Origin: Archaeoglobus sp. JdFR-37
GTDB lineage: Archaea > Halobacteriota > Archaeoglobi > Archaeoglobales > Archaeoglobaceae
Direction: 5' to 3'
Length of the DNA: 52,273 bases
NCBI GenBank assembly: GCA_002010215.1
Contig: MTMY01000007.1
Location: 62,001-114,273 of the forward strand
Positions 18,094-45,184 of this stretch are shown one piece after another. Every line of letters begins with the position of its first letter. Position 1 is the first letter of the stretch. A model generated the notes under the pieces. It was not told the DNA's origin, did no database searches, and saw only the letters and a program-made list of their open reading frames with translations. The translations under genes and the position numbers were made by a program.

Positions 18094-18939
18094 TCACAGG
18101 TTCTCATTCTTGAAAATCCCTGAATATGGAGTTGTGTAATCGGTGAGCTTTATGAAGACTAGCTGTACTATTCTGGCGTTTCTTTTCAGCCATAACCCAT
18201 CCTCGTTATACACTACCAGTCCAACCTCACTTCGCCCTGAATAGCCGGCATCCCAGACTGCAGTGAGAACGTTGGCACCGCTCCTTACTAGCGTTGACCT
18301 CGGCCTGGCAATAGCCATGATGTCTCTGCTCAGGCTGATAACTTCATTGAGATAGGCTCTGTAAACTCCTCTGGGCAGAAACACCCAGTCATCGCTGAAG
18401 GAAATCTCCTCCACCTCGGGCAGTTTTCTTTCAGAATTGTCGAAGTCTATTCTGCCAGCCCCCTTAATCCTTCCAATGGCCCTCAGGGTGCAGTCGAAGC
18501 CGTTGGGCTGGAGCTGAGTGCTAAGATCGATGTAGTCTTTTATCAGACCCTCATCTTTTATGCGCTTGGCAATATCCTTTGCTGTGAGAACGCTACCCAT
18601 TGGTAGGTCATAAAATTCAGAAAAAGGTTTGATGTCCAGAACAGGAGAGCCGGGCAAAGCATCGAGCCCCTCAACCTCAATGACATCTCCCTCTATCTTC
18701 CTGACTACCACTGCAGTCATACCAATCCTGTTCGGCCTGTAGGGACTCCGGGTGGAGAAAACACCCCTCAAAGGTTGGGACTTGTCTCCCTTTGGATGAA
18801 CTTTAAGGGCTTCTTCTGCAAGATGAAACTGATAGAGAATCCAGACTCTGTCACCTTCTTTCAGGCCATCAAGTGCCGGCAGGAACTCGTTGTGGATTCG
18901 GATTCTCTTTTCGTCGATAACTTCTCCAACAGCCTTCAT
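18094..18939 (-). CDS. TrmO/TsaA (t6A37 N6-methyltransferase-like) fused to archaeal dUTPase
   Basis: N-half GVFSTRSPYRPNRIG...LDALPGSPVLDIKP; C-half QPNGFD, PRSTLVR, VWDAGYSGR. Confidence 0.88.
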   Translation of the reverse strand: MKAVGEVIDEKRIRIHNEFLPALDGLKEGDRVWILYQFHLAEEALKVHPKGDKSQPLRGVFSTRSPYRPNRIGMTAVVVRKIEGDVIEVEGLDALPGSPVLDIKPFSEFYDLPMGSVLTAKDIAKRIKDEGLIKDYIDLSTQLQPNGFDCTLRAIGRIKGAGRIDFDNSERKLPEVEEISFSDDWVFLPRGVYRAYLNEVISLSRDIMAIARPRSTLVRSGANVLTAVWDAGYSGRSEVGLVVYNEDGLWLKRNARIVQLVFIKLTDYTTPYSGIFKNENL

Positions 18940-20117: not shown

Positions 20118-20162
20118 TCCCTGAAAAATGATTTTTTAGTGCCGTCATAATTATCCAAAGCT

Positions 20163-20243
20163 GCCGGGGTTGCCGAGTGGTAAGGCGTCGGTCTGCTAAA
20201 CCGATGGGCTCTGCCCGCGTGGGTTCGAATCCCACCCCCGGCG
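20163..20243 (+). tRNA. tRNA-Ser(GCT)
   Basis: Acceptor GCCGGGG/CCCCGGC, anticodon arm TCGGT-CTGCTAA-ACCGA, long variable arm GGGC/GCCC, T-arm GTGGG-TTCGAAT-CCCAC, discriminator G. No encoded CCA and no intron. Confidence 0.97.
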
Positions 20244-20454
20244 TGTCTCCTTTTGGTTCAACGCCTTTTTACACTGTTTTATATGCCTATAGGATCCACT
20301 ATCACCCAGTAAAAACACTTCATTAATAAAATGATGTTAAACTACTATCTCACTAGCCATGGCATTATAGAGAAAAGATATCGTTGAGGAAAGAAAAGAC
20401 GAATAATCATGAGATACATCTCAACAAACGTGTATTTATGTTACACTAATATAA

Positions 20455-20922
20455 TCAAACAGTTTGGACATTTCTTTTAAATCTTTTTGCGAACTCCCTC
20501 AAAGTCCCTGCAATTATATCCATTGATTTATACTGCTTACTTTCACCAAATGTATTTCTAGTAATAAATACCAATTCTACAATAGAGGAAATATTTTTAC
20601 CGGCTCTTGAAAGTTGTCCATCAAGCACTTCTTTTAGATACCAATCCCATTTTGCTGGATTTGGTGACCTCCTGTTAATCAAGATGTAACTAGCAACAAT
20701 GGGTGCAAGATCAGGTCTCAACGAATAAACTCTTGTATTTTTTTCTGCCGAAATTGATTCTAACCCTTCCCAAACGCTCGGATTTTCCACTATCCTATTA
20801 AAAACATGTAGTGCTGCATCCCCTGTCACTTTCGCGATAGGGGTTTTATCTCTCGAATATAACGTTAATTCAGGTCTCTTTTTTTCCTTAAGCATGAGGT
20901 AATAATCTGGTGTTACATCCAT
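20455..20922 (-). CDS. Small hypothetical, last gene of the DUF499/DUF1156 operon (positional analogue of DUF3780)
   Basis: GGAGGTG RBS overlapping the stop of the upstream PglZ-like gene. Family assignment is positional only. Confidence 0.65.
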   Translation of the reverse strand: MDVTPDYYLMLKEKKRPELTLYSRDKTPIAKVTGDAALHVFNRIVENPSVWEGLESISAEKNTRVYSLRPDLAPIVASYILINRRSPNPAKWDWYLKEVLDGQLSRAGKNISSIVELVFITRNTFGESKQYKSMDIIAGTLREFAKRFKRNVQTV

Positions 20923-20927
20923 TCGAT

Positions 20928-21713
20928 TCACCTCCAAGAAATTAGATAAAGAGCATACTTGCTAAATTTAAGTGTTCCCTCTTCCGATGGATGTGTAACA
21001 TAAAGGACATTACTCCTTTCTATAACGTTGTAGCCATGATCTGAAGTTAATAGGATGCTACCGTACTTAGTGGTTAATTGTAATACTTTCTCAAATATCT
21101 TTTCAATAGGAACTGCTTGAATAAAATCTCTAACATGAATGAATGATGAAGCATGTACAAGTCTATCGAAATAAGACAATTTGTCATTATAGGTTGCGTT
21201 AAAGCGTTCAGACAGTAATTCGGAAAATTTCTTGATCGTACCAAACTCTCCGAGCTGCTTTGTTAAATAACTAGTCACACCACCAATATTTACAAAATAA
21301 ATGTTAGGAATAGTTGCATTTAATTTCTTCTTTTTTAGTCCTGTTAAAATCGTTATCACCTCTATGGGTGAAAAGCAGTCAATTACATAGACGGAATCGA
21401 CCCCATCTATTTTCTTTTTAAGCTGCTTAATCACAAATTCGAGGTCAGAATACTCAACTTTTACTTCAAGAGCACCCAACAATTTTCTTGCAACCCTCAC
21501 ACCTTCGAAAAAGGGGTCAAATAGTATTCTCTCGTAAATGGTTGTTAAGTCCGGAATAGAGGTTTTCAAAAGTAAGACCTTTTCGCTTTCTTGTATACCA
21601 AAACCGGCTCTCAAAAAGGTTGCAAATACTAGGCGGTATATCTCCCCGATTTCAGCATTGGGAAAACTCTGGTCGATTATTTCTGAAAGTTCATCAGATA
21701 TGGCTGATATCAT
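20928..21713 (-). CDS. Minimal PglZ-like alkaline-phosphatase-fold protein
   Basis: VYVIDCFS and LLTSDHGY motifs. ATGA overlap with the ATPase gene. Confidence 0.7.
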   Translation of the reverse strand: MISAISDELSEIIDQSFPNAEIGEIYRLVFATFLRAGFGIQESEKVLLLKTSIPDLTTIYERILFDPFFEGVRVARKLLGALEVKVEYSDLEFVIKQLKKKIDGVDSVYVIDCFSPIEVITILTGLKKKKLNATIPNIYFVNIGGVTSYLTKQLGEFGTIKKFSELLSERFNATYNDKLSYFDRLVHASSFIHVRDFIQAVPIEKIFEKVLQLTTKYGSILLTSDHGYNVIERSNVLYVTHPSEEGTLKFSKYALYLISWR

Positions 21714-24700
21714 TCTACCCGTGCAGATTTGAGATATTGAGCGATTTCCTGTTTTTCAACACTTCTATTTTGCAAGTGAAGCGTTAGTTCGGGAGCGGAT
21801 TTGAACCTCTTTGCTAAGGCAAGGATAAATCTCATTATCACATCTAAGTCCTCCCTTTCGATTTTACCCATTTTTATGTCTATATTAAAGTCTTTAAAAT
21901 TCATTGCTATACGTCCCCCTTCAATGAACCTTTCTTTCTCCTGAACGAACCTTAAGACATCACTTATACACTTTTCATCTGCTATTTGATAAATAATTTT
22001 CTTTGCATAATCTTTTTCCTCTTTCTCCTCTTTTACAGCAAACTTCAGCATGTATTCGTCATCCGGGGTTGTTAGCTCATGTAATGATTCAATAACAAAC
22101 CTGTATTCCCCTTCTGTTTTTGGTAAAGGCACTTCAAATGCTAATTCCACACTTTCTCCAGTCTCTAATTTCCCAGCAGGATAAGATTCTATGAGACTTC
22201 CATCATCCGCATTCTTTATCCTTACTATGCAGTTACCAGTTGCACCCTCATTAATTACTTTTACCGATACCTTAACGATTTCACCAGGGTCGTAAAACAG
22301 CTTATATGGGGAGTACGAAACTTTTAATATCATTTTTGGCTCTTTTGGATGGTATTCAAATCTAATTTTCTTATCAGAACGATCGACTTTTATCCTGACT
22401 ACTTTATCTGGGAAGTCAATGATTTTGTTATTTAGTTTGTTAAGTGCCTCATTGGCGAGATCCACATTAATAGGCAGAACACCATAATTACCCACTATGA
22501 AGTTTTCAAATACTTCCTCAAGACTTATGTATTCCTTCCCATTTTCTGCAACGACTTCAACTATTTTTTTGTATATAACATCTCTAAGCGCTCCTGCATT
22601 ATCTTCAAAGCCTACTATACTGAGAATTTCCTCTAAAAACTTCCCAACAATGTTTGAGTACTCTTCAAGTTTTCCTGCGGATCTACCAACCAAGTGTTTA
22701 ATTTTCTCATCTTTCTTTTTATAGAATGCATCTGATGAAGTATAGCATTTCTCCTGAACCTTATAGTAAATTGGTTTTTCATAGATTGATAAGATGCTGG
22801 CGATAATCTCTCTACCATTTCTAATCTGCTGCTGATTTGCAGAATTCCTTGCATCCCTAATCTGCTGTTGAATGGCTATACTAAGCTGCCTCATAATATT
22901 TTTCTCGTCTATTTCTTCTCGTTTTCTAATAATTTCTTGTCTTATCTCCTCAGAGTACTTCTTAATAACTTCTTGTTCTTCTTTCAGGTAATCTAAAAAT
23001 CGTGCTGTTGCTGTGTAATCGATGAGAGTATCAACGGCAGTCTTTAGCTTAGATGTATTTGGCAATGCAACGATTAAAAACGGCGGTCTGTTCACTTCAT
23101 TAAGAAGTTCATTTATTCTTTTCGTTATTTCATCCAAAACTAAGTCATAACCTCTTAATTCTATTGCGTTGAAAAGCTGCAAATCCCAAGGTGGGATAAG
23201 GACTATGTTAGGTTTATCAAATTCCAGAGACTGTAAGAATTTTCCTGAGACCAACGACTCAAAATCCTCTGTTACAATTCTGCTTTTATTTCCACGCAAT
23301 CTTAAAAAGATGCCATATAATCTGGAGTTCCGGAGGTAATTCGGAACCCCCATTTCCTCAACTTTCTTCCTTTCCTCTATAATATGGGATTCCCTAATGC
23401 TAAAGATATGTTTTATTACTGATGGGAAGTAGTATCTGTCTCCATTTAAAGTCCGCTCCACTACCCTTGCACTTCGGATTTTTAATTCTGTTAAGGCATT
23501 TGGATATGATTCGAGGATATCGTTGACTTCATCACTTTTTGTTGTAGAGATGATAGATGCCTGAATATCTTTAACTGTAGTTCCATATTTTTTACTTTTT
23601 TCACCAAGTTCTATTAAAGCTAAAATATTTGAGGTTGTACCCTTTGATAAAATAACTTTGCTTATGACGTCAACAACTTTAGGATTGTTTGAGGATTCAA
23701 TTGCTTTAGAAATATCGGAAAGAATCGAGAACCACTCGATCTGGGCAGCATCATCAAGAGTGTCATGTAATGAAGCCTGATTTAGGCTTAAAAATCTAAC
23801 GCCTAGCGTAGGGACTTCTGGCTCTGAGATCAATGCAGATTTTGCAGCATCTTTTAATATACTGATAACGGTTCTAACATATTCAGTTCTTGGAAACTCC
23901 GATAGATCATGAACTTTCCTAAGTAAATTTGAAAGATCCGGAGAGAGAGGATAGTACTGCTTGATCTCTGATAAATAATTCTGAAGTTCTGTCTCATCAT
24001 CAAAAACTTGATATTGTCTTAGAATTGACTCAATGTAGTCTATAACAGAGTTCTTTGCTTTTTCAATATCGCTTATAGTTCTAAAAACTCTAAACTTTGC
24101 AATTTCTATGTTTTGGCGTGGGCTAACTTGCAATGGGGTAGCTTCTAAACCACCTGTGTACCTCTTTAACCGTTCCCTCAAGTCAACTTCTATTAATGTT
24201 TTTAACCCCTCAATCTTCTTCGAAAAACTTTCGTCATCTGCATAGTACTTGATTTTACCATCAAGAGAACGCAAATCTTGCTCAGCTAAAGCATATACTA
24301 TAACCAAGGATACCCCGATTCTCTGCAATTCTTCTGCTGCTGAGGATAAGAAGCTTATAAGTTTTCTTGCATCATCTATCAGCTCATCATTTTTCTGATC
24401 TTTTGCTGTATCTATTCTTTTAATTATCCCATAGCCGAGTTCATCGATAAGCAGAAGGATTCTTGGCATTTTTCCATATTTTTTCAACTCCTCGGCAAAT
24501 CTTACAAAAAAAGCAATGAGCTCTGAGGGATTATTTGAAAGTTTGTATTCATCGTGAGTTTCGAAGAGGTTTATTAGAGTCCTTATCATCTCTGGATCCT
24601 TGTTGAAGGTTACATCTTTAGCATAGGCTTTAAGAAGCTCTACAAGTGTCTTCAATGGAGGCTCTTTATCACTAACATCACATGCAAGTACAACAGTTTG

Positions 24701-25048
24701 TCGAATCAGCTCTTGTTGTGGGATTAATTCAGGAGGCAATCCATCTAATTCACCCTTGCTAAAGATGTGCCATAGTATTATCATAGAATGGGTTTTACCA
24801 AAACCAAAGCCTTTAACCAGTGGAAATGGAGTTGTACCGGGTTTAGACAGTCCATTAGCAACGCTTTTTACAAATAGCTTAAGTGGATCGGTAAAACAAG
24901 TGTTCTCAAAGACATATTTAGCATTGCCAAATCTTGTAGGATGTTTTGAACCCAAACTTCTCATTACTGCAGCATGAAGGCTTGGAGTAAGTTCTTCTGG
25001 TTCATCAATCTCCAGATTGAATTTCACCACTTCTCCTATTGGGATCAT
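21710..25048 (-). CDS. DUF499-type large AAA+ ATPase (BrxC/PglY-like) with C-terminal Ig-like domain
   Basis: Walker A GFGFGKTH, Walker B LLLIDE, YYPLSP motif, beta-rich PGEIVKVSVKVINEG...GEYRFVIE domain. Confidence 0.8.
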   Translation of the reverse strand: MIPIGEVVKFNLEIDEPEELTPSLHAAVMRSLGSKHPTRFGNAKYVFENTCFTDPLKLFVKSVANGLSKPGTTPFPLVKGFGFGKTHSMIILWHIFSKGELDGLPPELIPQQELIRQTVVLACDVSDKEPPLKTLVELLKAYAKDVTFNKDPEMIRTLINLFETHDEYKLSNNPSELIAFFVRFAEELKKYGKMPRILLLIDELGYGIIKRIDTAKDQKNDELIDDARKLISFLSSAAEELQRIGVSLVIVYALAEQDLRSLDGKIKYYADDESFSKKIEGLKTLIEVDLRERLKRYTGGLEATPLQVSPRQNIEIAKFRVFRTISDIEKAKNSVIDYIESILRQYQVFDDETELQNYLSEIKQYYPLSPDLSNLLRKVHDLSEFPRTEYVRTVISILKDAAKSALISEPEVPTLGVRFLSLNQASLHDTLDDAAQIEWFSILSDISKAIESSNNPKVVDVISKVILSKGTTSNILALIELGEKSKKYGTTVKDIQASIISTTKSDEVNDILESYPNALTELKIRSARVVERTLNGDRYYFPSVIKHIFSIRESHIIEERKKVEEMGVPNYLRNSRLYGIFLRLRGNKSRIVTEDFESLVSGKFLQSLEFDKPNIVLIPPWDLQLFNAIELRGYDLVLDEITKRINELLNEVNRPPFLIVALPNTSKLKTAVDTLIDYTATARFLDYLKEEQEVIKKYSEEIRQEIIRKREEIDEKNIMRQLSIAIQQQIRDARNSANQQQIRNGREIIASILSIYEKPIYYKVQEKCYTSSDAFYKKKDEKIKHLVGRSAGKLEEYSNIVGKFLEEILSIVGFEDNAGALRDVIYKKIVEVVAENGKEYISLEEVFENFIVGNYGVLPINVDLANEALNKLNNKIIDFPDKVVRIKVDRSDKKIRFEYHPKEPKMILKVSYSPYKLFYDPGEIVKVSVKVINEGATGNCIVRIKNADDGSLIESYPAGKLETGESVELAFEVPLPKTEGEYRFVIESLHELTTPDDEYMLKFAVKEEKEEKDYAKKIIYQIADEKCISDVLRFVQEKERFIEGGRIAMNFKDFNIDIKMGKIEREDLDVIMRFILALAKRFKSAPELTLHLQNRSVEKQEIAQYLKSARVE

Positions 25049-25052
25049 GCTA

Positions 25053-28031
25053 TCACCCTAAGAAGTCATCAAGACGAGTTAAAATTCTGCCTTTCGGTTT
25101 GACCTCTATTTGGACATCTCCTACTACTAAATGTGCTAAAGTCTCTGATATAATTTTACGTAGCTGCTCTGGCTCAACCTTAGCCAATCCCTCCAGATCT
25201 GAATCTGGAGCAGTTGCAAGCAATACCAACGCTAAGGCTGCATCAAATTCAATTTCATTTAAGTATTCTGCAAGGTTTTCATTTTCGGCTATTTCTTTAG
25301 CTCTTACAGCTGGCGTTCCACCAGTTATTGCTGCAAGATATGTCAGATAAATGGCTCTTCCGACAGGTGTTTTTAGGAATGTTTTAATATCTGTTTTTAT
25401 CTTTCCAGTTGAATAATCTTTCACATAAAGAAGTTTAAATATACTATTCTCTTTTTTAATCAATCCAGCTTTCGAGAGACTTTTTTCGTCATATCCACAG
25501 AGTTTTGAAACCATTTGCGTAAAATCAAAGCTAAGCAAGAGGGGGTCGTCATACAGGCTTCCGTCCATCTTCACATGAGATATCATCCATAGGGAGAGGT
25601 AGGAACGAGAAGATGCATCCAACAGCAACCTTTTCTCAATTTTTTCAGTTAGAACAGATGATTTTTCTTCTTCAAATCTAATATAACCAGTCTTACTAAA
25701 TATTCTGTTTAAGAGAGGTGCAAAGAACTCCCTTATGGCTAAAGTTATGGCCGGGGAGTAAAGCTCGTTGAATTTAACATCGAAAGGTAGCTCGTATTTA
25801 GTAATAACGCTCATCGCTGTGCTGAAGACAATGGCGATGGCATCTGCAGTCGTTATGTCGAGATCTTTGATCAGATTCCGGGCATCATCGACAGCTAATT
25901 TGACGGTATTTTCAAATTCCTCATTAATCAGCAGGGATTCAAGGACATCTGTGCTTCTTATTCCAGTTAGTAGCTTTCTTTCTCCTTTCTTAGCCACTAT
26001 GGCTAAGGTAACTTGTTGTGCTACCTGATTTACCTGTTTTTTGTATCGAGTTGGCATTTCTGTATACAGCGGGTAAACCTTTGGAACTACATAGTTTGAC
26101 TCATAGATGGACTCGCCAACTGTTTGCCAAGCTTCTGCTTTGGGATGGGTGAACCAGAGAATGAGGTAGCCATCATCTTTGAGCACCTTGTAAGTCTCTT
26201 TAACGAATTTTTTGAAAAGTTGGTTAAACCTTTCATCCCCATTTCCTTTCCTTGCAACCACTTCTTCATCTCTTGGCAGTGTTGGATTGCTGTAATCCCA
26301 GTTTTCAAGTTTTGAGTCCTTGAAGAGGATGGGTAAAACTGGCATTAGTGCTCTTCTTAGAATTGGCCAAAATAGTTCGCTTTTGTCGCTGTAAATTACC
26401 TGCTCGTAGTATGGTGGATCGACGTTTATCACGTCGATTTTCTCGTCTATTATCTTTGATAGCTGTGTTGCATCGGCTTGGTAAATTTTAACGTTGTTGT
26501 TTGGATTTTCTTTGAATTGGTCAGTTAGGAATCTTAGTACGGGAAGAATTCCGCCAGTAGTCTTTCCGTATTTTCTTTTTTCTGCTATTTCCGGTTCAAG
26601 TGCCCATTCTAAGCTTCTTTTTGGTAAAGTTACAACCATTTCTACGTATTCAGCCCTGAAGTCCATCGTGCTCTCCCCTCTAAGAAAAGGTGAAATATTT
26701 GCGTTTCCTCTATGCCAGGTAGTCCCAAGCATATTATAATTGGCAATTTTATCAATTGCAAAGACAATATAAAGCATTGCCGCGATCCCAAGCTCACCTC
26801 TCTCGTTATACAGTTCCAAAGCCCTCTCTGCAACGTACTTTGAAAGTTCAGCTAAAACCAGAAGTTGTCTCGGGTTAAAGAGCATGTACCATTTCGGCTT
26901 AATTTCGTCACCCACTAGATTTCTAAAAGTAGAGACCCATTGATTTTCTTCTGGAATTTCATCTAACGGAATGTAACTCTGAAGCTCGAAAATTTTGTTC
27001 GATAATTCCTTAAAGGCGTTTATGAGCTTCTTTCTCTCTTCTTCATCGTGATAAATAGCATAAAACTGGTTACCAACCTGTTTTACTAATGGGATATGGA
27101 TTTCAAGCATCTTTTCTTCAAGCCCATTTGTAGGTTCCAAATCTTCAACGACTCTCTTTATTAGATTGGCATGTTCTTTAAACCACCTTGCAAATGCATG
27201 GTCATTTCCTCTTCCTCTGAGCTTGAATAACTGGTTGCAGTAGGGACATTCGGCAAAAACATCTCCTTTTTTCTTTACTTTTTTAAGTCTCCAATTTTGT
27301 GGCACATCTGTTGTTTCGACTTTGAACGTCTTATTTTCTTTATCAAATTCTATTTTCAGAAATCTATTTTTGAAGGACTCTTTTTTTGTTATCTCTGGGA
27401 AAATACCAGCTACTGGAATTAAACCATTGCAGTGAGGACATCTTACACCTCTCGCAAAAATGTAGTTTTCAGCATCACTATAAAAACCACCCAAAATTTC
27501 CTTAGCTTTCTCAATAAAATCTTTGGCCTCCTTTAACGCTAAATCAAACAATTCTTCACCATACTTTGCAGGAAATTCTACTGTGGCTTTTAGAATGAGG
27601 TACGCCACAGGATTGTAATCAATAGCAATCGTTCTAAAGCTAAGCCTCGCAGCCTCAACAGGAATTGAGCCTCCACCAGCCATTGGATCGAGAACCGTAA
27701 TGCCAGATGGGTCAATATACTGACTAAGCTTTCCTATATGGGGTTGTGACATATAAATTACCTTTGGTCCCTTTTTACTCATTTTAATCTGATACAAACC
27801 AACGATTTGTTCGAATTCTTCCTCGCTAAAATCTTTTCCATTAACTTCAGCAGGTAATATTGCCGCCGTAGTCAATACTCTCGCCAATCCAGCTGGTCTT
27901 CTGGCAAACCACGTGTGGATGTTGTGAACCTTTGGATATGTTATTGAGCCTCTGCCAGCCTTGTAACCAGCTTCTTTGACTCCTATTTCATTAACCGCAA
28001 CAAGATCGAACCCTTTCTCAATAAGCCTCAT
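25053..28031 (-). CDS. DUF1156-domain adenine-specific DNA methyltransferase
   Basis: IHTWFARRP (DUF1156), motif I LDPMAGGGSIP, CPHC/CPYC zinc pair, motif IV VDPPY. Confidence 0.9.
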   Translation of the reverse strand: MRLIEKGFDLVAVNEIGVKEAGYKAGRGSITYPKVHNIHTWFARRPAGLARVLTTAAILPAEVNGKDFSEEEFEQIVGLYQIKMSKKGPKVIYMSQPHIGKLSQYIDPSGITVLDPMAGGGSIPVEAARLSFRTIAIDYNPVAYLILKATVEFPAKYGEELFDLALKEAKDFIEKAKEILGGFYSDAENYIFARGVRCPHCNGLIPVAGIFPEITKKESFKNRFLKIEFDKENKTFKVETTDVPQNWRLKKVKKKGDVFAECPYCNQLFKLRGRGNDHAFARWFKEHANLIKRVVEDLEPTNGLEEKMLEIHIPLVKQVGNQFYAIYHDEEERKKLINAFKELSNKIFELQSYIPLDEIPEENQWVSTFRNLVGDEIKPKWYMLFNPRQLLVLAELSKYVAERALELYNERGELGIAAMLYIVFAIDKIANYNMLGTTWHRGNANISPFLRGESTMDFRAEYVEMVVTLPKRSLEWALEPEIAEKRKYGKTTGGILPVLRFLTDQFKENPNNNVKIYQADATQLSKIIDEKIDVINVDPPYYEQVIYSDKSELFWPILRRALMPVLPILFKDSKLENWDYSNPTLPRDEEVVARKGNGDERFNQLFKKFVKETYKVLKDDGYLILWFTHPKAEAWQTVGESIYESNYVVPKVYPLYTEMPTRYKKQVNQVAQQVTLAIVAKKGERKLLTGIRSTDVLESLLINEEFENTVKLAVDDARNLIKDLDITTADAIAIVFSTAMSVITKYELPFDVKFNELYSPAITLAIREFFAPLLNRIFSKTGYIRFEEEKSSVLTEKIEKRLLLDASSRSYLSLWMISHVKMDGSLYDDPLLLSFDFTQMVSKLCGYDEKSLSKAGLIKKENSIFKLLYVKDYSTGKIKTDIKTFLKTPVGRAIYLTYLAAITGGTPAVRAKEIAENENLAEYLNEIEFDAALALVLLATAPDSDLEGLAKVEPEQLRKIISETLAHLVVGDVQIEVKPKGRILTRLDDFLG

Positions 28032-28482
28032 TTACTCACCTTCTCCAACCATGCCTTTAAACACTGAGCATAAGGTCCAAGACCTCCGCCACTTATGTAT
28101 GTACCCTCTGCATTGGTAATTTTTTCAATATCACCAATAGCTTTTCTAAATTTCTCCCCAAGGCTACAAAGACTTCATCATACTCTTTTTCAAAAATTTT
28201 CTTTAAAAATTCGACATTCCTCTTCACGACCTCTTTAGGCACATCTTTTGGCCCAAATCCACTCCAGCTATCCTCTTTTGGCTTCTTGTAAGGCAACTGA
28301 TCTTCAGCCCAAACTAACTCCAAATCTTCGGTAAGAACAAGGACGTCTACCTTATCTGACTTCAAATTCCTTCTAAGAACCCTGTATAGCACTCCATCGT
28401 ATCTTTCGATAGCTGGTAGAGGTTTAGCATCGCTCTTCCTTCTGTAGCTTGGAGGCATGATGAGTAGTTTTCTTGACATCAA
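28028..28482 (-). pseudogene. DUF6884/YaaA-like protein with single-base frameshift
   Basis: RRK...PAIERYDG.LYRVLR motif. Adding one G to the G4 run (28156-28159) gives ...ALGEKFRKAIG...GGGLGPYAQCLKAWLEKVSK*, whose TGA overlaps the methylase ATG. Confidence 0.7.
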
Positions 28483-28639
28483 TTTCGCGTAATCGATTAA
28501 CTTAATTAAAGTTTCTTTCTTGCTTGCCCTTTATCATAAACTGAAAATACATATCTTAAACCACCTTTACTAATCTTTTCTAAGAAAATTTTAATATAGG
28601 ATTATTGCAAATCAGATTCAAAAGCATTATGGTGGGCTT

Positions 28640-29566
28640 ATGCCCCTAACTCCTGAAGAAAGAAGACGTTTGGTCGAAGAGTTGTTATTAGGTGAGGTTA
28701 TAGGAGATATTAGAAGCGTCCCAGTTAGTGTGTCCAAAACCCACCTCAAACTCGAGAAAGACATTGAACCTAAATCTTTACTCAAACAAACTGCGCAGTT
28801 TTTGGAAGAGTATCTGTACACAAAAGACCCCAAAAAACTGAAAGAAGGCTTTACGGAACCAATTGTAGATGAAAATGAAATGGAGGTTTGGTATTTTAAG
28901 CAAAGCCCAAGAAAAGTCGTCATCCCGAAGGTCAAGTATCTCGATAAACAGTATATTAGTGATGTACTTCCACCAAATAGAGTCTATTTGTATGTAAGAG
29001 CAAATAGAAACTTAGTCGAAATCTATAGATTTGGTGGAAATGACGAATTTGCAAGGAAAGCAATTGATAAGCTTTTAAGATCTATAAAAAAAGCAGTAAC
29101 ATCATCATTTGAAACTATTCGACCTGGTTTTTCTCCTTCTGATATGTATGAAATTATGAGGCGATTAGGTTTGATAACATACATTAACGTTGATCCAATG
29201 GATAACGAGAAATTCTTTAAGGCAATAGAACGGGGATCGGGTAAGAAGCCAGTTTTAGAATATGCTGTCTCTGAAATTATGATAAAGGGGTATAAAATCA
29301 CAAACTCCCCGAAAATTAGAGAGATATTGAGAGAAGAGAAGATAAAAATCACAGAATTGATTGGTGATATAAAATATCAGGGAAGAAAAATTAAAGTTTG
29401 GGTTAAAGATAGCGGAAAAATAACCTTCTTCCTATCCCCAACCATTGCAGGAACAGACGACGAGGATGAAATAAAAAAGTACGGTATTGACCTCTATGAA
29501 GAGCTCTCAAGGATCGAGGAGATGATGGAAGGGCCGATAGGCCTTGCAAAATGGGGTATAAAATGA
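28640..29566 (+). CDS. Hypothetical protein, divergent from the methylase operon
   Basis: 308 aa ORF with GGTGGG RBS. ATGA-coupled to the next gene. Confidence 0.8.
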   Translation: MPLTPEERRRLVEELLLGEVIGDIRSVPVSVSKTHLKLEKDIEPKSLLKQTAQFLEEYLYTKDPKKLKEGFTEPIVDENEMEVWYFKQSPRKVVIPKVKYLDKQYISDVLPPNRVYLYVRANRNLVEIYRFGGNDEFARKAIDKLLRSIKKAVTSSFETIRPGFSPSDMYEIMRRLGLITYINVDPMDNEKFFKAIERGSGKKPVLEYAVSEIMIKGYKITNSPKIREILREEKIKITELIGDIKYQGRKIKVWVKDSGKITFFLSPTIAGTDDEDEIKKYGIDLYEELSRIEEMMEGPIGLAKWGIK

Positions 29567-30939
29567 CAGTCAATTGGAATGAGTATTTTAAGAAAATCCT
29601 TCCAAATCTTTCTTCCATGAATTCGGTAATAGAAATTCTGAAAGCCGTAAAAGAGAGCGGAAGATACGAGCTTTTACAAATAATATTTCCGAAAATTAAT
29701 GGCATTATCGGTCATCTTAAATTTGATGATTTGCCCTCAGATGAAGTTTTTCGTAAGATTATTGACCTTCTAAGTGATTTAGATCTAGAGGAGTTGTTAG
29801 ATGTCTGTGCAGAATCAATTTTTGGCAACATCATCTGGCTCAACATGTTATGTGAAAAGGAAAACATAATCACGAACTCCAATATACATACTGTATTAAA
29901 AGTTTTAAATCTTAAAAAAATAGATGACGTGTGCTTCTTTCAACCCAATTTTGGAAAGAAAATCTTCCTACGCATCAGTGAAGGGATTAATTTGCCCAGA
30001 AATGAACTAAAAAAGGTCATAGATTCTTTGCTTATTTTATTTAGATTAGATCTATTAGAGAAGGACAAAGAACTTGTAGACTCATTCAGAACTCTCTACC
30101 TGGAGACAGATTTGCCAGATTCAAGAAAAATTCTACGTGAAATTGAAATAATTCTGGAGTCAGACGAGAGTACACTTATCAGTGAATACAACTCTATTTT
30201 CGGAGAGCATGTTCAGAGCATTGAAGAAGTTAATTGGAAACAATTTTTTGATTACTTAGTTGAAATAAATTGTCCTGTTTTCTTCGAACTCTCGAAAGTA
30301 AAGGTTGAAGGAGACAAATTTTACAATGGAAACTTCTTCGTATTGGTCTATAAGGACTTATCAGGAAATCTGAAATTATTGAAGCCCTTTTCCCGAATAA
30401 AGGTAGATAAAGTCCAAAAAATATTGGATATCAGCAGAAGTATTTGGGCTACTCCACCTGTAAGACCTGGAAAGATACTTTTGGAAGACATTTACTCTTT
30501 TAGGAACATCAGATTAATTTCAAGAGAAAATGCTTCAAAATTCATTTCGAGGGTCATAGACCTCAGTGAAGATGAAATAGAAGAAAAACTAAGAAAAATT
30601 GTAGGAGACATTGGCTCAACACCACATACATCCACAGAGGTAGTTGACTACTACACATACAATTTGAGAATAAGCAGTGAGGAGGATCTTAGAGAAGCTG
30701 GTGTAATAATAAAAGGAAAATCATTTGGTAAGCAGATTACACTAAAAAATGTGGCAAATCAAATTATTAAAGCTGTAACAAATGATAGATTTGACCTGAT
30801 AATCCTAATCCACATACCACAACTTGCAGATGACGTTAGAATCCACTTTGAACGACTATGTTTGCAATTTAACAAAATGTATGCTATAATTGGTCCAGAA
30901 GACCTAACCAGATTGTTTTTAGCGTATAATGTTATTTAA
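29563..30939 (+). CDS. Hypothetical protein with C-terminal restriction-endonuclease-like domain
   Basis: C-terminal E...TPH.STEVVD...GVIIKG...NQI...IIGPEDLTRLFLAY resembles Mrr-type PD-(D/E)XK folds. Confidence 0.55.
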   Translation: MTVNWNEYFKKILPNLSSMNSVIEILKAVKESGRYELLQIIFPKINGIIGHLKFDDLPSDEVFRKIIDLLSDLDLEELLDVCAESIFGNIIWLNMLCEKENIITNSNIHTVLKVLNLKKIDDVCFFQPNFGKKIFLRISEGINLPRNELKKVIDSLLILFRLDLLEKDKELVDSFRTLYLETDLPDSRKILREIEIILESDESTLISEYNSIFGEHVQSIEEVNWKQFFDYLVEINCPVFFELSKVKVEGDKFYNGNFFVLVYKDLSGNLKLLKPFSRIKVDKVQKILDISRSIWATPPVRPGKILLEDIYSFRNIRLISRENASKFISRVIDLSEDEIEEKLRKIVGDIGSTPHTSTEVVDYYTYNLRISSEEDLREAGVIIKGKSFGKQITLKNVANQIIKAVTNDRFDLIILIHIPQLADDVRIHFERLCLQFNKMYAIIGPEDLTRLFLAYNVI

Positions 30940-31011: not shown

Positions 31012-33414
31012 TCATTTTGTTTTTACCTCTATGGGTTTTTCGCATCTTGAGTTAGAACACCTCAAAATTTTCAAATCACGGTAATAATTGATAAAACGCC
31101 CGCATTCTGGGCAGAGAAATGCCTCGTGGAGTTCTTTGACACGATTACAAAAACTTTCTACTTCGTCAATAGAAACGTTTTCAGCCAGTATATTATTGTG
31201 GGAAAGGAGATTTCCCATAATTATCATTAGATCTAAATTTTTGAATCTTTCGAAAACATGTGCTTTGAACTGTTCATCTTTTATTAACTCCTTAACTCGT
31301 TTTTTGGCAGGATCATAGAGGTCTCCCACCGTATATCTTCCAGAACTCTTAAACGGCACAGGAGCCTGAGTTAGTTCACAAATTCTCTCAAGAAGCCATT
31401 CAAGATATTGCCTTCCCTCATTCCCCGCCCCAATCTTATCTCCTGAGACAATTTTTTCCTGTATTCTTTCCCACCTTGGCTTATAAGGTCTGATTATCGG
31501 TCCCGTGTCAACGCTCCAATCGACTATACTCAAATTCTTAAAGTTACCTTCTACGCCGTATGCCCTCTGAGCTGCACGTAATTGTTCATACCATACGCCA
31601 TCGTGGGTAGTTATAATAAGCTGTTTATCTCCGAATTCCTCAATCAACAATTTGCAGATATTTTCTCTATGCCTTGCATCCACTGTGGTGACGACATCGT
31701 CTAAAACGATTAAAGAACAACTCTCATTAAACTTTTTCACAAATGCGAGAAATATACACAAACCCAGTGAGTCAAGGTGACCCTCACTAGTCAACGCTCT
31801 GGGATCTTCCTTTTGACCAAAAGATTCTATTTTGAGTTCTGTACTCGCTCTTTTACCAAGCGCCACTATAAGTTCGATATTCCTGTGGGGTTCGTTTGGA
31901 TGAAGCAATGAGTAAAAACGTTGGATATCCCCTTGTATAGAATGGTAGATCTCCTGAACCTTCTGTTTTTTAACCTGTGAAAAAGTGGAATATATTTTCT
32001 CGGCAAGTTCGTAGAATTTTCTATAGTCTGCAAGTTCGGAGCTGAGCTTAGAGATGTCTTTAACTTTAATCTTTACTTGTTCAATCAAACTGATGATCTC
32101 CAACAGTTTTCTCTCTTCCTCCGTAAGCTCCATCTCTTCTAGTCTGGTTTTACATTTTGTCAGTATGGAACTTAACAATGTGTTGATTTCCTCTTTTTGC
32201 TGGTTAAATTTCTGAACTTGTATCCTATTTCTAAGTTCAGTAGCAGTTTCAATTTCACGCATAAAACTCCTCAGAAAATCAACTTTCCTCGGCAATTCAC
32301 TTTTTTCCTCAGATAGTTCTGTGAACGGGTCGATTTTAGTTAGTATGGATTGCAATTCGTCGACCAACATTTCTAATTTCCTCTTTACCTGAACAGAAAT
32401 TTCTCGAATCTCTGAGGCTCTTTCGGAAAGGCTACGAAGAATTCTGAGGCGCTCATGGAGTTTCGAAAGTAACCTTTCTCGATCAATTCTTTGTTCACAT
32501 AGAGGGCAAGTGTCTCTCTTCTCTTTTTCTAAGATACTTTTACCCACTTCAAGTAGCTTGGATTCGAGCAAACTTAATTCGGAGAGATCAAAACCTTCTA
32601 CTAAAAGCTGTTCTATCTTTTCATTGAGGTTTTCGAGTTCACCCACGACATCGTCTGGTTTCAATAAAGTTTCTAACGTACTTTTCACATCTTTTAACGT
32701 TTTAATTACCTCCATATTGACATCCTTCTTTATGGCCTTTAGTATTTCCTCAGAAACAGCGTCAAAGTCCTCAAAAGCTTCAATCTCGGGTAAGTTAGCC
32801 TCCCTTAGTATTTTATTTAAAGCCGGTAATATCTCCTCAATCTTTGTTATGGTCTCTCCCAAGCTTCTGGAAAGATCGGCAAACAGTGTGTCAATCCTAC
32901 TCTCTATAGATTCTACCTCGCCCCTCAAATTATCACGAAGCCGCATCATTTCGAGTTCTATTTCATCCAGCCGTTCTATGCCGATAATACTCCCTATTGC
33001 TCTAAAACGGTCTGCAGGCCGGCTCATAATAAATGCAAGAATCTGCGACCTGCGTAGGATGAAGGTTCCTTTTTGAGTTACCTGGAAGTAATCCTTAAAC
33101 TCCTCGGGTGGGGCTGGAGCTGAAGTAAAAGTTCTCGTCAAAGACACGTTACCCGGATTAAATGTTATTTCAATTCTCACATCTTCCGGACTGTAATGTA
33201 CATGAGGCCCGTGCCGTTGTAAGGATAAACCCTTCACCCCCTCCAGATGAAACACTTTCCCTGTAAAGAAGAATTCAATAGCATTTACTATCGAGCTTTT
33301 CCCCGTTCCGTTTTCCCCCCGTATAATGACACTTTTTCCATCCAGTTCCAGCTCTAAATCTGGAATTCCCCTGAAAGCGTGAATATTTATTGCTTTAATC
33401 GTTACTGGCATCAT
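31012..33414 (-). CDS. Rad50/SbcC/RloC-like ABC ATPase with zinc hook and C-terminal extra domain
   Basis: Walker A GENGTGKS, coiled coils, CPLC hook, signature TSEGH, Walker B IVLDD, H-loop TTHD, C-terminal GNLLSH and CPEC...C....C. Confidence 0.85.
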   Translation of the reverse strand: MMPVTIKAINIHAFRGIPDLELELDGKSVIIRGENGTGKSSIVNAIEFFFTGKVFHLEGVKGLSLQRHGPHVHYSPEDVRIEITFNPGNVSLTRTFTSAPAPPEEFKDYFQVTQKGTFILRRSQILAFIMSRPADRFRAIGSIIGIERLDEIELEMMRLRDNLRGEVESIESRIDTLFADLSRSLGETITKIEEILPALNKILREANLPEIEAFEDFDAVSEEILKAIKKDVNMEVIKTLKDVKSTLETLLKPDDVVGELENLNEKIEQLLVEGFDLSELSLLESKLLEVGKSILEKEKRDTCPLCEQRIDRERLLSKLHERLRILRSLSERASEIREISVQVKRKLEMLVDELQSILTKIDPFTELSEEKSELPRKVDFLRSFMREIETATELRNRIQVQKFNQQKEEINTLLSSILTKCKTRLEEMELTEEERKLLEIISLIEQVKIKVKDISKLSSELADYRKFYELAEKIYSTFSQVKKQKVQEIYHSIQGDIQRFYSLLHPNEPHRNIELIVALGKRASTELKIESFGQKEDPRALTSEGHLDSLGLCIFLAFVKKFNESCSLIVLDDVVTTVDARHRENICKLLIEEFGDKQLIITTHDGVWYEQLRAAQRAYGVEGNFKNLSIVDWSVDTGPIIRPYKPRWERIQEKIVSGDKIGAGNEGRQYLEWLLERICELTQAPVPFKSSGRYTVGDLYDPAKKRVKELIKDEQFKAHVFERFKNLDLMIIMGNLLSHNNILAENVSIDEVESFCNRVKELHEAFLCPECGRFINYYRDLKILRCSNSRCEKPIEVKTK

Positions 33415-33568
33415 TATACCCCCTTTTTATTACTTCAAAGATTCTCTCTTGAGATACTTCACCACTTTCCAATAATTCCTTCAATTTCTCAATAATAGAG
33501 CTAGGAATAGCTTCATCCTCACTTAATTTTCTAAAAAACTCCTCGAATATTTCCCCCTGAATTCCCAT
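33395..33568 (-). CDS. 57-aa helical partner protein of the ABC ATPase (not in ORF track)
   Basis: MGIQGEIFEEFFRKLSEDEAIPSSIIEKLKELLESGEVSQERIFEVIKRGYNDASND with GGTGGGG RBS. Overlaps the ATPase start. Confidence 0.7.
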   Translation of the reverse strand: MGIQGEIFEEFFRKLSEDEAIPSSIIEKLKELLESGEVSQERIFEVIKRGYNDASND

Positions 33569-33837: not shown

Positions 33838-35313
33838 TTATTCCTCATCGAGAGTGCAATCAAAATGTTGCGATAATTTACTTTCAACTATTTTAAAACT
33901 GAAATTCAGTAGTTTTTCAGAAGTTGGTTTGTCAATGGCCTCTCCCTTATGAACGAATCTGTTTCTTTTGTTTTTCAGATCTATCAGCAATTCATAACTC
34001 TCATCATCCAATTTTCCAGCCAAATTTAAGGTCTCCAGTATATGATCTGTTCCCCATTGAACGGGATTTTTGAGTTTCCTTTTCCTATCACCAATAACTT
34101 GCCGCTCTTTAATAAAATCCTCCCAAAGTTCAGACAAATACCTCTCAACAATTAACCAGTTGATTATGAAGGAGTGGGAATACTCTGAGTTAGCATAATG
34201 TGTGTAACCTTCTATCAGGAAAATCAATAACTCAGCCAGCTTTTGATCTCTTGCCACAATTTCGGCTTTATTCAAAATCTCTTCTATAGTCTCTTTAGGT
34301 ACCTCTTTCCGTATGTAATAGAGAGTATCTCTCCTCCTTTCCATAAGGAGAGACCTCAAAGACGAGAACTGCCATGTGGTTGCGGTAATAGTTAAAGAGT
34401 CAGGATCTATCTTTATGTCAGCCAATTCCAGCTCCCTTGTAGACAGACAATCAATACCAGATATCAAGGCGATACCAAAGATCGTGTTAAGAATTCGAAG
34501 AGCTTCACTCTCATCTTCTGCTTCCACCCCCACAAAACCATCTGAATATACAACGAGCTTTTTGCCATTGAAATCGAAATCCAGTATTTTTGAGGGTGGC
34601 GGGTATAGTTGGCCAGAGAGCCTATCCCTAAAAGTCGTTTCAGGAGTCTCGCCAATCCAGATGGGCGGGTAGAAGTGGGCACCATAGCCCTTTATTTTAG
34701 GTTGAGGTTGGACTTTCTCTTGAACAGAGTCAGACTTGACCTTGCTGATCCTGACTCTTTGCTTAGCATCTTTGATAATCTTATTCACGAAATCCGCATA
34801 ATCAAATTCGTCCACCCTACCCCTTACGCACCAGAACCAGCTGTTGCTATCTATAACCATCCCGCCCATGTGTTTTGTTTTGAATTCGGTGAAAACGGAG
34901 TCCTTGATTAAATTTAGAAAACCACTAAGTCTGGTTGCAAACACATCAGAGCGCTTAACTTTACCTGTCTTTGCGCCATAATATAGCGAATCTTTCGGTA
35001 TTGGTTTCCTCCATCTCGGCTCGTTCATAATTTTCTCCATTTCGTTTATGAATTCGTGGCCATGGTAAGGCCCATTAATTATGATCTCCTTGTCAGGTCT
35101 GTCAGGATCGTGTGAAATGGCGATAATTTGGTATTCTAACGGTTCAGATAACCAGAATACTTCGATCTGGCATGGAGGGCCATAGTAATCAGCTTTAGTT
35201 ATGAACGACCTTTCTTCTTCGCTCAATTTATCAAACTCGGTTCTGAACAACTCGATTAGTCGTATAAACCAGGTTCGTATTTCATGTATGGTTTGTTTGC
35301 TCTCGGATGTCAT
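33838..35313 (-). CDS. HEPN-domain protein (putative RNase toxin)
   Basis: C-terminal helical domain with W..VE and an RxxxxH motif (RNRFVH). Start likely at 35313. Confidence 0.7.
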   Translation of the reverse strand: MTSESKQTIHEIRTWFIRLIELFRTEFDKLSEEERSFITKADYYGPPCQIEVFWLSEPLEYQIIAISHDPDRPDKEIIINGPYHGHEFINEMEKIMNEPRWRKPIPKDSLYYGAKTGKVKRSDVFATRLSGFLNLIKDSVFTEFKTKHMGGMVIDSNSWFWCVRGRVDEFDYADFVNKIIKDAKQRVRISKVKSDSVQEKVQPQPKIKGYGAHFYPPIWIGETPETTFRDRLSGQLYPPPSKILDFDFNGKKLVVYSDGFVGVEAEDESEALRILNTIFGIALISGIDCLSTRELELADIKIDPDSLTITATTWQFSSLRSLLMERRRDTLYYIRKEVPKETIEEILNKAEIVARDQKLAELLIFLIEGYTHYANSEYSHSFIINWLIVERYLSELWEDFIKERQVIGDRKRKLKNPVQWGTDHILETLNLAGKLDDESYELLIDLKNKRNRFVHKGEAIDKPTSEKLLNFSFKIVESKLSQHFDCTLDEE

Positions 35314-35317
35314 ATTC

Positions 35318-36409
35318 TCATAACTCCGAAACCTCTCCCAAAATCTGGTTTTTGACATTAATAATCGCTTTCATGACCTTATCAATTCTCGGCGCCCATT
35401 CATCAATCTTGAAACTAGGATACCTATTTACCCAATCTTCAGGAAATCTGAAGTCTGCTTTTTCTAGTTCTTCCTTCAACAATGTCGCAACCTTAGCGCC
35501 AATCTCGCTTTCAGATAACCAGCCAAAATTTAGCTGTAGGGTGCCGTTTGAGAAAACAGTATAGATTGACCTTGTACCCAACAATGGGTGTTTCGCGTTG
35601 AAAGACCCTTTGGCGAGACCCGTTCCCCAACCCAGTATGAAATTTTCTCTTGAGAATTCGTAGAAAGCCCTTAGAATCTCAAAATCTTCTTCACTTAACC
35701 TATTTCTTGCGTCATCAAAGAAGCTTTGTTCGTCCCAAGTTTTTCTACGTGGCGACGTTTTTATTCTTGTATATTCCATTCCAAAGATCTTTGGTATCAC
35801 GATATCAAAATCCCCATACCTATAGAACTCCAATTCAGCAGCGAAGATATCAAACTTGGAATTCTGATTTAGGTAGAGCAATATGTGTTTTAAATCCTCA
35901 GGAATCGTGTCCATCAGAACGACAAATATGAACCTTCCTTCAGCCAAGTTCTGTTTAATACCGCTGATAATGGAATCGACGTACTCCTTTCCAAATTCTG
36001 CCTCTAACTTCTGCGCTAAACCTACTCCCACCTGTTTTTCTAGCACTACATTCAAATCGTTCAAAAATTTATCAGGGTTTGTGGAGTACTTTGCCCACAA
36101 GCCTGCGCCGTATTCGAGTAGCTGGGCAATGACGCGCTTTTTATCGGGATTTTTGTAGAGTTTCGTTTCTATAATGTAAATATCACCGTCCTCGTCAATC
36201 CCTATAACATCCATTGAGCCAGTGGATTGACCAATATTGACTGAAAACTCTTTAACGAGTGTAACAAACCTTTTATCTTCTTTAATTTCTGAGATTGGTA
36301 TAATTTCCGGGTTGCTGTGTATGTAATCTTGGAGATCTTGCTCTAAACTAATCTTTGATTTTTCAAGTGCTTTCAACACCTTTCCGTTCTTAGACACGAT
36401 AACAACCAT
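35318..36409 (-). CDS. NucS-like PD-(D/E)XK endonuclease
   Basis: LEQDLQDYI..NP, MDVIGIDEDG..IIETK, VIAQLLEY. Confidence 0.8.
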   Translation of the reverse strand: MVVIVSKNGKVLKALEKSKISLEQDLQDYIHSNPEIIPISEIKEDKRFVTLVKEFSVNIGQSTGSMDVIGIDEDGDIYIIETKLYKNPDKKRVIAQLLEYGAGLWAKYSTNPDKFLNDLNVVLEKQVGVGLAQKLEAEFGKEYVDSIISGIKQNLAEGRFIFVVLMDTIPEDLKHILLYLNQNSKFDIFAAELEFYRYGDFDIVIPKIFGMEYTRIKTSPRRKTWDEQSFFDDARNRLSEEDFEILRAFYEFSRENFILGWGTGLAKGSFNAKHPLLGTRSIYTVFSNGTLQLNFGWLSESEIGAKVATLLKEELEKADFRFPEDWVNRYPSFKIDEWAPRIDKVMKAIINVKNQILGEVSEL

Positions 36410-36460
36410 TCTAAACACCCCTATCTCCAACTTTGGCTTAATATCTGCTCTCAACTTTCC

Positions 36461-41816: not shown

Positions 41817-41850
41817 AATATGAGAAAAAGCTTGGAAAGGGAGACTCTAT

Positions 41851-41891
41851 AAAGCTACCAGAAGTGTTAGTTTAAGTAAAAGCTACCAGAA
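41851..41891. repeat. 13-bp direct repeat AAAGCTACCAGAA x2
   Basis: Exact copies at 41851-41863 and 41879-41891. Confidence 0.85.
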
Positions 41892-45144: not shown

Positions 45145-45184
45145 GTTGGTTTGTTATATTGTTCCAAATAAATACGCTGCGGTT

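Follow-up and report, generated by a model that had tools for sequence, protein, structure and literature searches.

A four-gene archaeal variant of BREX-related systems with a 261-aa PglZ protein in Archaeoglobus sp. JdFR-37

Introduction

The closest described system to the gene cassette analyzed here is Type-3 BR, which consists of a DUF499 ATPase, a DUF1156 methylase, an SNF2 helicase, a standalone PglZ and an iSTAND protein (Rakesh & Krishnan, NAR 2026, PMC12839542). Type-3 BR is reported from 569 taxa, 134 of them archaea, with iSTAND in 82% of the taxa; the main text of that study calls BrxL specific to types 1 and 4 of bacteriophage exclusion (BREX), and YaaA and DUF6884 are unmentioned in it. 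In the MANTIS system, an ATPase and a small protein are needed for a DUF1156 methylase to hemimethylate asymmetric 6-bp sites, and the effector is a helicase-nuclease (bioRxiv 10.64898/2026.09.23.753747). The cassette considered here lies in a 52,273-nucleotide stretch of Archaeoglobus sp. JdFR-37 (assembly GCA_002010215.1, contig MTMY01000007.1, positions 62,001 to 114,273), the whole of which is called the window below. It encodes an N6-adenine methylase, an AAA+ ATPase, a mini-PglZ of 261 amino acids (aa) and a small partner protein (Table 1), and it is an uncatalogued archaeal variant of BREX-related systems, a new subtype rather than a new kind.

A previous sequence-only reading of the window had proposed an undescribed antiviral system. 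The composition is indeed uncatalogued, and a literature search, in which subscription papers were thinly covered, found no account of DUF1156 with BrxL and mini-PglZ or of this four-gene form. The parts list is nevertheless less new than had been assumed, because Type-3 BR already combines DUF499, DUF1156 and a standalone PglZ. Our preferred interpretation, to which we give a probability of roughly 60%, is that the cassette is an anti-invader system of the BREX-related kind resembling restriction-modification, in which self DNA would be marked and unmarked DNA attacked by PglZ. This is favored by the constant gene order, the seven invariant residues and the fold of PglZ, and the insert-focused divergence of the methylase, together with the patchy distribution, the location in a low-GC (guanine plus cytosine) defence island and the varied nucleases found next to related cassettes.

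A conserved core of four genes

The conserved core of the locus is four genes (methylase, ATPase, mini-PglZ and small protein) and not the five of the operon originally proposed. All five open reading frames (ORFs) are present on the minus strand where they had been placed, but the first is frameshifted and is absent from some relatives. Tight coupling likewise holds for the last four genes, with a 4-bp gap between methylase and ATPase, an ATGA overlap between ATPase and mini-PglZ, and a 10-bp overlap of the mini-PglZ and small-protein genes, counted from a TTG start of the latter. The more likely start of the small protein is the ATG at 20922, which has GGAGGTGA upstream and yields 155 aa, the length in the database record. 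A sigma-70 promoter scan, with a model ill suited to archaea, returned matches at chance level.

The gene cluster is real and not a product of chance, because dozens of loci share its gene order. The relatives comprise 56 loci from a metagenome scan with the PglZ alignment and one from GTDB (L001, from Ca. Methanoxibalbensis); L059 is the same place as L001, and L003 is the window's own record. Since many of the loci are near-copies, locus counts are not counts of independent events. Complete cassettes are held by 17 loci, 12 with BrxL and five without (L001, L003, L004, L008 and L052), and the order methylase-ATPase-(BrxL)-PglZ-small protein is found in all 17, one of which is the window's own record. 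Another order, PglZ-small protein-methylase, occurs in L046 and L057. The system is rare and patchy, because the PglZ profile matched two of 401 genomes in the phylum, and in the window's class the window itself was the one match in 96 genomes. At the 50% level, 33 representatives of the mini-PglZ were found among 1.84 billion proteins, two named cluster members of one homologue come from Sulfolobales metagenome-assembled genomes, and a search of viral contigs for PglZ relatives found none. In L001 the four genes form a lower-GC insert (0.40 versus 0.49) in a neighborhood of housekeeping-type genes, where inspection by eye showed no further defence gene.

Table 1. Genes of the cassette and the adjoining tRNA gene, in window coordinates
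Feature	Coordinates	Strand	Basis and remarks
DUF6884/YaaA-like gene, frameshifted	28028..28482	-	129-aa ORF 28482-28093 plus C-terminal part in other frame; accessory
DUF1156/HmaB/MtsC-type N6-adenine DNA methyltransferase, 992 aa	25053..28031	-	PADLOC/NCBIfam matches, DPPY, 2x CxxC insert
DUF499/BrxC-related AAA+ ATPase, 1112 aa	21710..25048	-	HmaC match, Walker A/B, own clade
Mini-PglZ, 261 aa	20928..21713	-	Invariant catalytic-type residues, PorX/PglZ fold in model
Small conserved partner protein, 155-160 aa	20455..20937	-	Directly 3' of PglZ in relatives
tRNA-Ser(GCT)	20162..20244	+	Left edge of the low-GC island carrying the cassette

The mini-PglZ protein

The TSDHG motif reported in the 261-aa protein is confirmed, as are the DPPY motif of the methylase and the large P-loop ATPase, and the proposal of a PglZ shrunken to about 260 aa proved to be real. 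All 37 homologues, of 22-83% identity, share seven invariant residues: D112, T147, D183, H187, D225, H226 and H241. We take their order to be that of the two-metal site of alkaline phosphatases and PglZ, with residue roles drawn partly from superfamily knowledge. In profile alignments to PglZ references, the D, DxxxH and SDHG motifs line up with counterparts, and H241 does not.

The protein is built of about 100 aa of N-terminal helices followed by a reduced alkaline-phosphatase-superfamily core, and its structure model (predicted local distance difference test, pLDDT, of 95) is predicted to have the PorX/BREX PglZ fold. The top Foldseek match is PorX (E 3.5e-4). In VIA-align against 48,161 chains, PorX reached a Z score of 7.8 (root-mean-square deviation 3.6, 160 residues aligned), followed by the BREX PglZ models 9zn5 (7.1; 3.2, 144) and 9nv3 (5.2; 3.9, 160), and general members of the superfamily scored 4.9 or less, below all three. 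The fold match comes from structure only, as a PDB sequence search with the PglZ profile returned nothing relevant; by sequence the mini-PglZ matches NF033445 at E 0.008. When the family profile was compared by hhalign with three small reference sets, the probabilities were 90% for type-4 PglZ, 75% for Type-3-like PglZ and 33% for type 1.

PglZ of type I BREX is reported to be a metal-dependent, sequence-independent endonuclease whose nuclease activity contributes to defence; Thr and His mutants lose activity or show altered activity, and PglZ domains cleave cyclic and linear oligonucleotides with the same active site that cuts double-stranded DNA (PMC12205998).

The methylase and the ATPase

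The methylase matches the PADLOC models HmaB (9e-27) and DUF1156_MTase (1e-17), and NF042963 at 1.2e-26, which is below that model's cut-off. Motifs I (DPMAGGGS, aa 115) and IV (DPPY, aa 538) are intact, and a DPPY-type motif is found in all 17 full-length family methylases. Between the two motifs is a putative target-recognition insert, a zinc finger with two CxxC motifs, and a block at about aa 350-500 varies between close relatives. The methylases of the window and L004 are 86% identical overall and 58% identical at aa 401-450, with the ATPases of the same pair at 92%; those of L001 and L008 are 88% identical overall and 52% identical at aa 401-450. Divergence focused on the insert, beside a conserved ATPase, is the pattern that would be expected if specificity were changing.

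All trees were quick searches with midpoint roots and support from the Shimodaira-Hasegawa-like approximate likelihood-ratio test (SH-aLRT), and their references were 40 regions around DUF1156 matches and 16 around BrxL matches, taken from the same phylum and typed by their neighbors. The family methylases form one clade (support 99), which does not group with the Type-3-like/iSTAND loci and has as its sister the methylase of L138. This closest outside relative (L138:8837-11969, 793 aa) has a TdeIII-type type II restriction endonuclease as its partner, with no ATPase encoded close by.

The ATPase has a Walker A motif (GFGFGKTH, aa 80), whose pattern is kept in 26 of 27 family ATPases, and a Walker B-type motif (LLIDELG, aa 199). 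Its original assignment to DUF499 fared less well: PADLOC HmaC matches at 1.2e-12, but Pfam DUF499 gives no match at E<=0.1 and NF042962 reaches only E 0.003, far below its cut-off, and the label appears weakly supported by profiles. Models of BrxC and DUF6079 in Pfam, PADLOC and NCBIfam gave no match at E<=0.1 either, and an Ig-like CARDB match at aa 921-983 is weak (E 0.005, below cut-off). PADLOC matched only the methylase and, weakly, the ATPase, with no full match to a defined system. The view of the locus as a hybrid of BREX and a restriction-like system, with the methylase and ATPase of the latter, is supported by the HmaB, DUF1156 and HmaC matches together with PglZ.

The ATPase trees comprised 46 rows, then 42 (14 dropped and 10 BrxC references added), and finally 24 of those 42. 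With BR types 1-3 and BrxC included, the family ATPases form one clade (support 99-100) on a long stem, and a branch of support 98 splits them from the 10 BrxC references. As unrooted trees without an ORC/Cdc6 root, these can only say that the ATPase appears to lie between BrxC and DUF499 types 1-3. An approximately unbiased (AU) test rejects the union of the family and the Type-3-like/iSTAND loci in one ATPase clade (p = 0.008; 7 + 5 of the 24 rows), with references that are our own sample from one phylum and not the set of PMC12839542. Five haloarchaeal reference loci, in which no PglZ was found, count only as loci that bear an iSTAND-like gene.

The small protein

The small protein is encoded directly 3' of PglZ in 55 of the 58 loci mapped; in the other three, fewer than 300 bases of sequence follow PglZ. 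It is predicted to have N-terminal beta-strands and C-terminal helices, with R74, D76 and P79 invariant. No Pfam family was found for its 30 members, one of which matched DUF7680 at E 0.087. Homology with DUF7680, considered because that family stands upstream of DUF1156 methylases, was rejected as undemonstrated (hhalign 0.3%), and comparisons with DUF7680, DUF3780, iSTAND-like and Type-1 small proteins gave at most 0.5%. For DUF3780 (PF12635), none of the 30 members matched at E<=1, and the hhalign value of 0.3% refers to an alignment of only four rows, one of them an unrelated ORF (L104). Against nine iSTAND-like proteins, labeled so from size and motifs, the probability was 0.1%. Fold searches with a single-sequence model (pLDDT 71) gave generic helical matches only; the MtsB chain was not among them, its presence in the fold library being unchecked. 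Two members gave no usable match in the ESM Atlas.

Two other groups of loci came to light in these comparisons. A set of 301 genomes gave 11 matches to DUF7680, each of them immediately upstream of a DUF1156 match (L090-L100, L113, L129). The seven of these loci with a full read have the order ATPase-DUF7680-methylase-SNF2, which places DUF7680 in the slot of DUF3780/MtsB in MANTIS, and by hhalign the small genes of L113, L129 and L100 (123-130 aa) match DUF7680 at 92%. The haloarchaeal-type loci L114-L120 and L125 carry a DUF499 ATPase, a DUF1156 methylase and a 127-aa iSTAND-like gene, as well as a divergently transcribed 582-aa SNF2 gene, a conserved gene of about 390 aa and, in many cases, McrBC; PglZ was not detected in these loci.

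A variable motor slot

The sequence-only reading had the motor simply dropped. There is none in the window, but most relatives place a Lon-less BrxL between the ATPase and PglZ, which could not be seen from the window alone. These BrxL proteins are 463-481 aa long, lack a Lon domain, match Pfam BrxL_ATPase at about 1e-112 and TIGR02688 above its cut-off, and form a clade of their own in the BrxL tree. A split BrxL of the same clade lies inside an unrelated defence-like cluster (L179:9452-10885). Among the 58 mapped loci, the gene before PglZ is BrxL in 33 and the ATPase in 11, with 14 undetermined; when L003 and L059 are left out, 33 of 42 readable relatives bear BrxL and nine do not. BrxL is absent from the window, its genome and the Ca. 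Methanoxibalbensis genome G274.

As proposed, the locus has no helicase, and SNF2 is missing from the whole genome, which is 94.5% complete. A home-made SNF2 profile matched six genome proteins, but their NCBIfam names are those of Hef, XPB-like, Lhr-like and DEAH helicases. Homologous loci do not always contain SNF2: the profile had 0 matches in L001-L059, of which only L001, L003 and L004 have more than 3 kb on both sides, so that the others would show a directly adjacent helicase only. The lack of a helicase is nonetheless not unique to the mini-PglZ family, because three Type-3-like loci (L130, L131 and L140) are also without an adjacent SNF2. These three are ATPase-PglZ (304-312 aa)-methylase-iSTAND-like cassettes, with no SNF2 in the 20 kb fetched.

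In the ATPase and methylase trees the BrxL-bearing loci are monophyletic (91-98) and the BrxL-less loci branch outside them. The PglZ tree differs in that some BrxL-bearing loci fall together with the branch of the window (support 89, midpoint root). A recent deletion of BrxL in the window was rejected, since the BrxL-less branch must be old given that its ATPases range from 44 to 92% identity. The branch may have arisen by ancient loss of BrxL, or BrxL may have been gained in the other clade, and both stand because the PglZ tree does not reproduce the other two.

The first gene

The gene upstream of the methylase, originally regarded as a DUF6884-like addition to the system, is a pseudogene in this copy and a dispensable accessory rather than part of the core. 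The homologue in L004 is intact at 154 aa, and relative to it the window's copy is one base short near 28162-28163. This frameshift leaves 61 bp between the end of the 129-aa ORF and the methylase; the missing C-terminal part is encoded in a different frame, with a stop at 28028 and an ATGA overlap with the methylase start, and both halves match the family profile. An assembly error was considered and rejected as unlikely, because an independent study's contig is identical over 27870-29425 (0 differences, 0 gaps). DUF6884 (E 1.2e-8) and YaaA (E 3.9e-4) each matched one of nine aligned family members, and the window's own ORF matches YaaA at E 0.015. DUF6884 is described as having a YaaA-like fold and as probably DNA-binding (PMC11701544). 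The gene was detected in 12 of the 17 complete cassettes by phmmer and in 13 by profile, and it is absent from L001, L008 and L052, each of which has more than 3 kb of upstream sequence.

Comparison with described systems

The cassette shares with Type-3 BR a putative DUF499-like ATPase, a DUF1156 N6-methylase and a standalone, catalytically intact PglZ, is likewise of a kind common in archaea, and has no fused nuclease. It differs in lacking an SNF2/BrxHII-like helicase and iSTAND, with a small protein of no known family instead, and in having an ATPase and a methylase that form their own clades, relative to a reference sample from one phylum. The family PglZ is about 250-290 aa, and most relatives add the Lon-less BrxL and the DUF6884/YaaA-like gene. 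Type-3-like loci have the order ATPase-PglZ-methylase-iSTAND, rather than methylase-ATPase-(BrxL)-PglZ-small protein, and their PglZ proteins (304-312 aa) match the family profile at only E 4e-4 to 0.04. The cassette would work like Type-3 BR, but it departs from that system in helicase, iSTAND and ATPase clade, and we have therefore not filed it as a member.

MANTIS/Gao_RL/Type-2 BR (MtsABCD) has a homologous ATPase, a DUF1156 methylase with DPPY and four genes that include a small accessory protein, and ATPase-assisted hemimethylation is probably common to both. The cassette differs from it in having no DUF3780 match and no PLD/HKD nuclease-SNF2 effector (MtsD), leaving PglZ as the sole candidate effector. 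With Hma/Type-1 BR the cassette shares its best PADLOC matches (HmaB for the methylase, HmaC for the ATPase), but it lacks the HmaA helicase-nuclease, for which PADLOC found no match among 14 island proteins, and it has PglZ and the small protein in addition. The contig of L001 (G274:C34) also carries, 22 kb away, a Type-1 BR/Hma locus (L102) whose helicase is of the SNF2-NOV_C kind. PglZ is the point in common with BREX types 1 and 4, as is, in most relatives, a BrxL without a Lon domain as in type 4. Here the differences are a methylase of the DUF1156 type rather than PglX, the lack of BrxA, BrxB and phosphoadenosine phosphosulfate (PAPS) reductase, an ATPase outside the sampled BrxC clades, a BrxL family in its own clade, and the absence of BrxL from the window.

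The host island and neighboring genes

A low-GC island (about 20245-42800; GC 0.378 versus 0.448 genome-wide) has the cassette at its left end and contains LmuB-like, TmtA-like and NucS-like genes as well. A repeat search found no att-like repeat at the other island edge, and no tRNA gene was found in 17 related loci. The 3' end of the tRNA-Ser gene and the bases after it (20220-20260) resemble two other places in the genome, C34:2905-2942 and C9:6218-6262, and independent contigs break there. Nucleases beside the cassettes of relatives vary, with GmrSD in L004 and L039, an Mrr-type gene in L021 and EVE in L052.

Within the island, an 800-aa SMC/Rad50-like ABC ATPase (31012-33568, minus strand) has LmuB as its best PADLOC match (1.7e-33) and is preceded by a 57-aa matchless ORF; no LmuA partner of this gene was identified. 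A 1665-aa sacsin-type GHKL ATPase with a C-terminal NOV_C (36461-41458, minus strand) matches TmtA of Tiamat in PADLOC at 2.4e-85, and TmtA-like genes also occur near the cassette in L004 and L017. Between the two (33838-36454, minus strand) are a 378-aa NucS-like nuclease (PDC-S11 7.8e-11; NucS 2.8e-5) and, after it, a 506-aa protein with a weak CARF-HEPN match (E 0.007). Two overlapping genes on the plus strand (28640-30939; 308 and 462 aa), divergent from the cassette, are the most GC-poor part of the island; searches of Pfam, PADLOC and NCBIfam gave them no match below E 0.02, and no counterpart was found in any other related locus. They are a candidate defence pair.

Other assignments were made by eye. 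At the right edge of the island (41553-46273), we take 41553-41759 to be a metallo-beta-lactamase-type gene fragment, the small genes at 42882-43466, 43498-44133 and 45243-45929 to be PD-(D/E)XK-like, and 45905-46273 to be an N-terminal serine-recombinase fragment. Outside the island, a 281-aa ORF (18094-18939, minus strand) is presumably a TsaA/UPF0066-like domain fused to a dUTPase/dCTP-deaminase-like domain.

Proposed mechanism and alternatives

By analogy with the homologous MtsA and MtsC of MANTIS, the AAA+ ATPase would load the DUF1156 methylase onto host DNA, and the methylase would hemimethylate adenine in a short asymmetric site, with specificity residing in the variable insert between motifs I and IV. 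The small protein could be a co-regulator or adaptor, playing the part of MtsB or BrxB, an analogy drawn from its size and obligatory linkage only. On unmethylated incoming DNA, the methylase-ATPase complex would license the metal-dependent mini-PglZ to nick or cut, blocking replication, as the biochemistry of BREX PglZ suggests. In most relatives the Lon-less BrxL ring ATPase would help; the window's branch encodes no separate motor.

Several points weigh against this scheme. The mini-PglZ is cut to 261 aa and is without the N- and C-terminal domains that BREX PglZ is reported to have (PMC12839542), so that DNA cleavage may be lost, and the invariant residues would indicate an enzyme but not its substrate. 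The missing motor is a weak point, as restriction would have to be driven with neither a helicase nor BrxL. In L052, the most basal of the relatives, a DEAD/DEAH helicase is encoded 17 bp upstream of the methylase. The small protein has no detectable homology to MtsB or BrxB/iSTAND. Finally, this copy may be decaying, because one of its genes is already broken.

It is rather doubtful that these loci are divergent members of the published Type-3 BR set of 569 taxa and already stand in its supplementary data. The three shared parts favor this, as do the Type-3-like loci without an adjacent SNF2, but the main text of that study gives Type-3 a helicase and iSTAND and restricts BrxL to types 1 and 4 (PMC12839542), both the ATPase (AU p = 0.008) and the methylase fall outside the Type-3-like/iSTAND loci, and gene order and PglZ size differ. 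We also think it unlikely that the BrxL-less form is a modification-only or weakened remnant that methylates the host and needs BrxL or a helicase from elsewhere for restriction, its methylation possibly protecting host DNA from the other island nucleases or working with them. Such a remnant would fit the BrxL of 33 of 42 readable relatives, the broken first gene and the grouping of the window's branch with BrxL-bearing loci in the PglZ tree (support 89), which is compatible with loss; conceivably, the remnant might also recruit one of the SF2 helicases that the genome has for housekeeping (Hef, XPB-like, Lhr-like, DEAH). Yet the BrxL-less branch spans ATPases of 44-92% identity and two host lineages with PglZ always intact, the ATPase and methylase trees put it outside the BrxL-bearing clade (91-98), and neither host genome (the window's and G274) encodes a BrxL. 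Moreover, BrxL is reported to be dispensable for defence in Salmonella BREX (PMC12839542).

Improbable, in our judgment, is that the mini-PglZ is a PorX-like phosphodiesterase of short or cyclic oligonucleotides or nucleotides, serving as a signaling or abortive-infection arm under a methylase-ATPase sensor. The best structural match is PorX, although it leads BREX PglZ by less than one Z unit and the two are effectively tied; cleavage of cyclic and linear oligonucleotides by PglZ domains and the lack of accessory DNA-recognition domains point the same way. Against it, no cyclase or signaling gene is conserved in the loci, and in BREX PglZ the same active site also cuts double-stranded DNA (PMC12205998).

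Implications

The anti-invader interpretation leaves the place of the family among its relatives to be considered. We suggest, tentatively and at somewhat less than even odds, a fourth, archaeal BREX-related lineage, intermediate between BREX with BrxC and the three BR types with DUF499. The methylase, the ATPase, the mini-PglZ and the small protein, the last perhaps the conserved partner of a new family, would form its core, and its motor slot would be modular, taken by the Lon-less BrxL, by a DEAH helicase or by nothing. Archaeal defence inventories may miss this family, because PADLOC detects so little of it.

Part of the difficulty in explaining how BREX blocks invaders is that its systems comprise six or more proteins. 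The four-gene form with its 261-aa PglZ, together with sister loci that differ by BrxL, would make three questions testable: whether PglZ is sufficient as an effector, what BrxL contributes, and whether the ATPase-loaded methylation of MANTIS is general. If the fourth-lineage reading is true, the window's branch would be the smallest working PglZ-based immune system, restricting without a helicase or BrxL.

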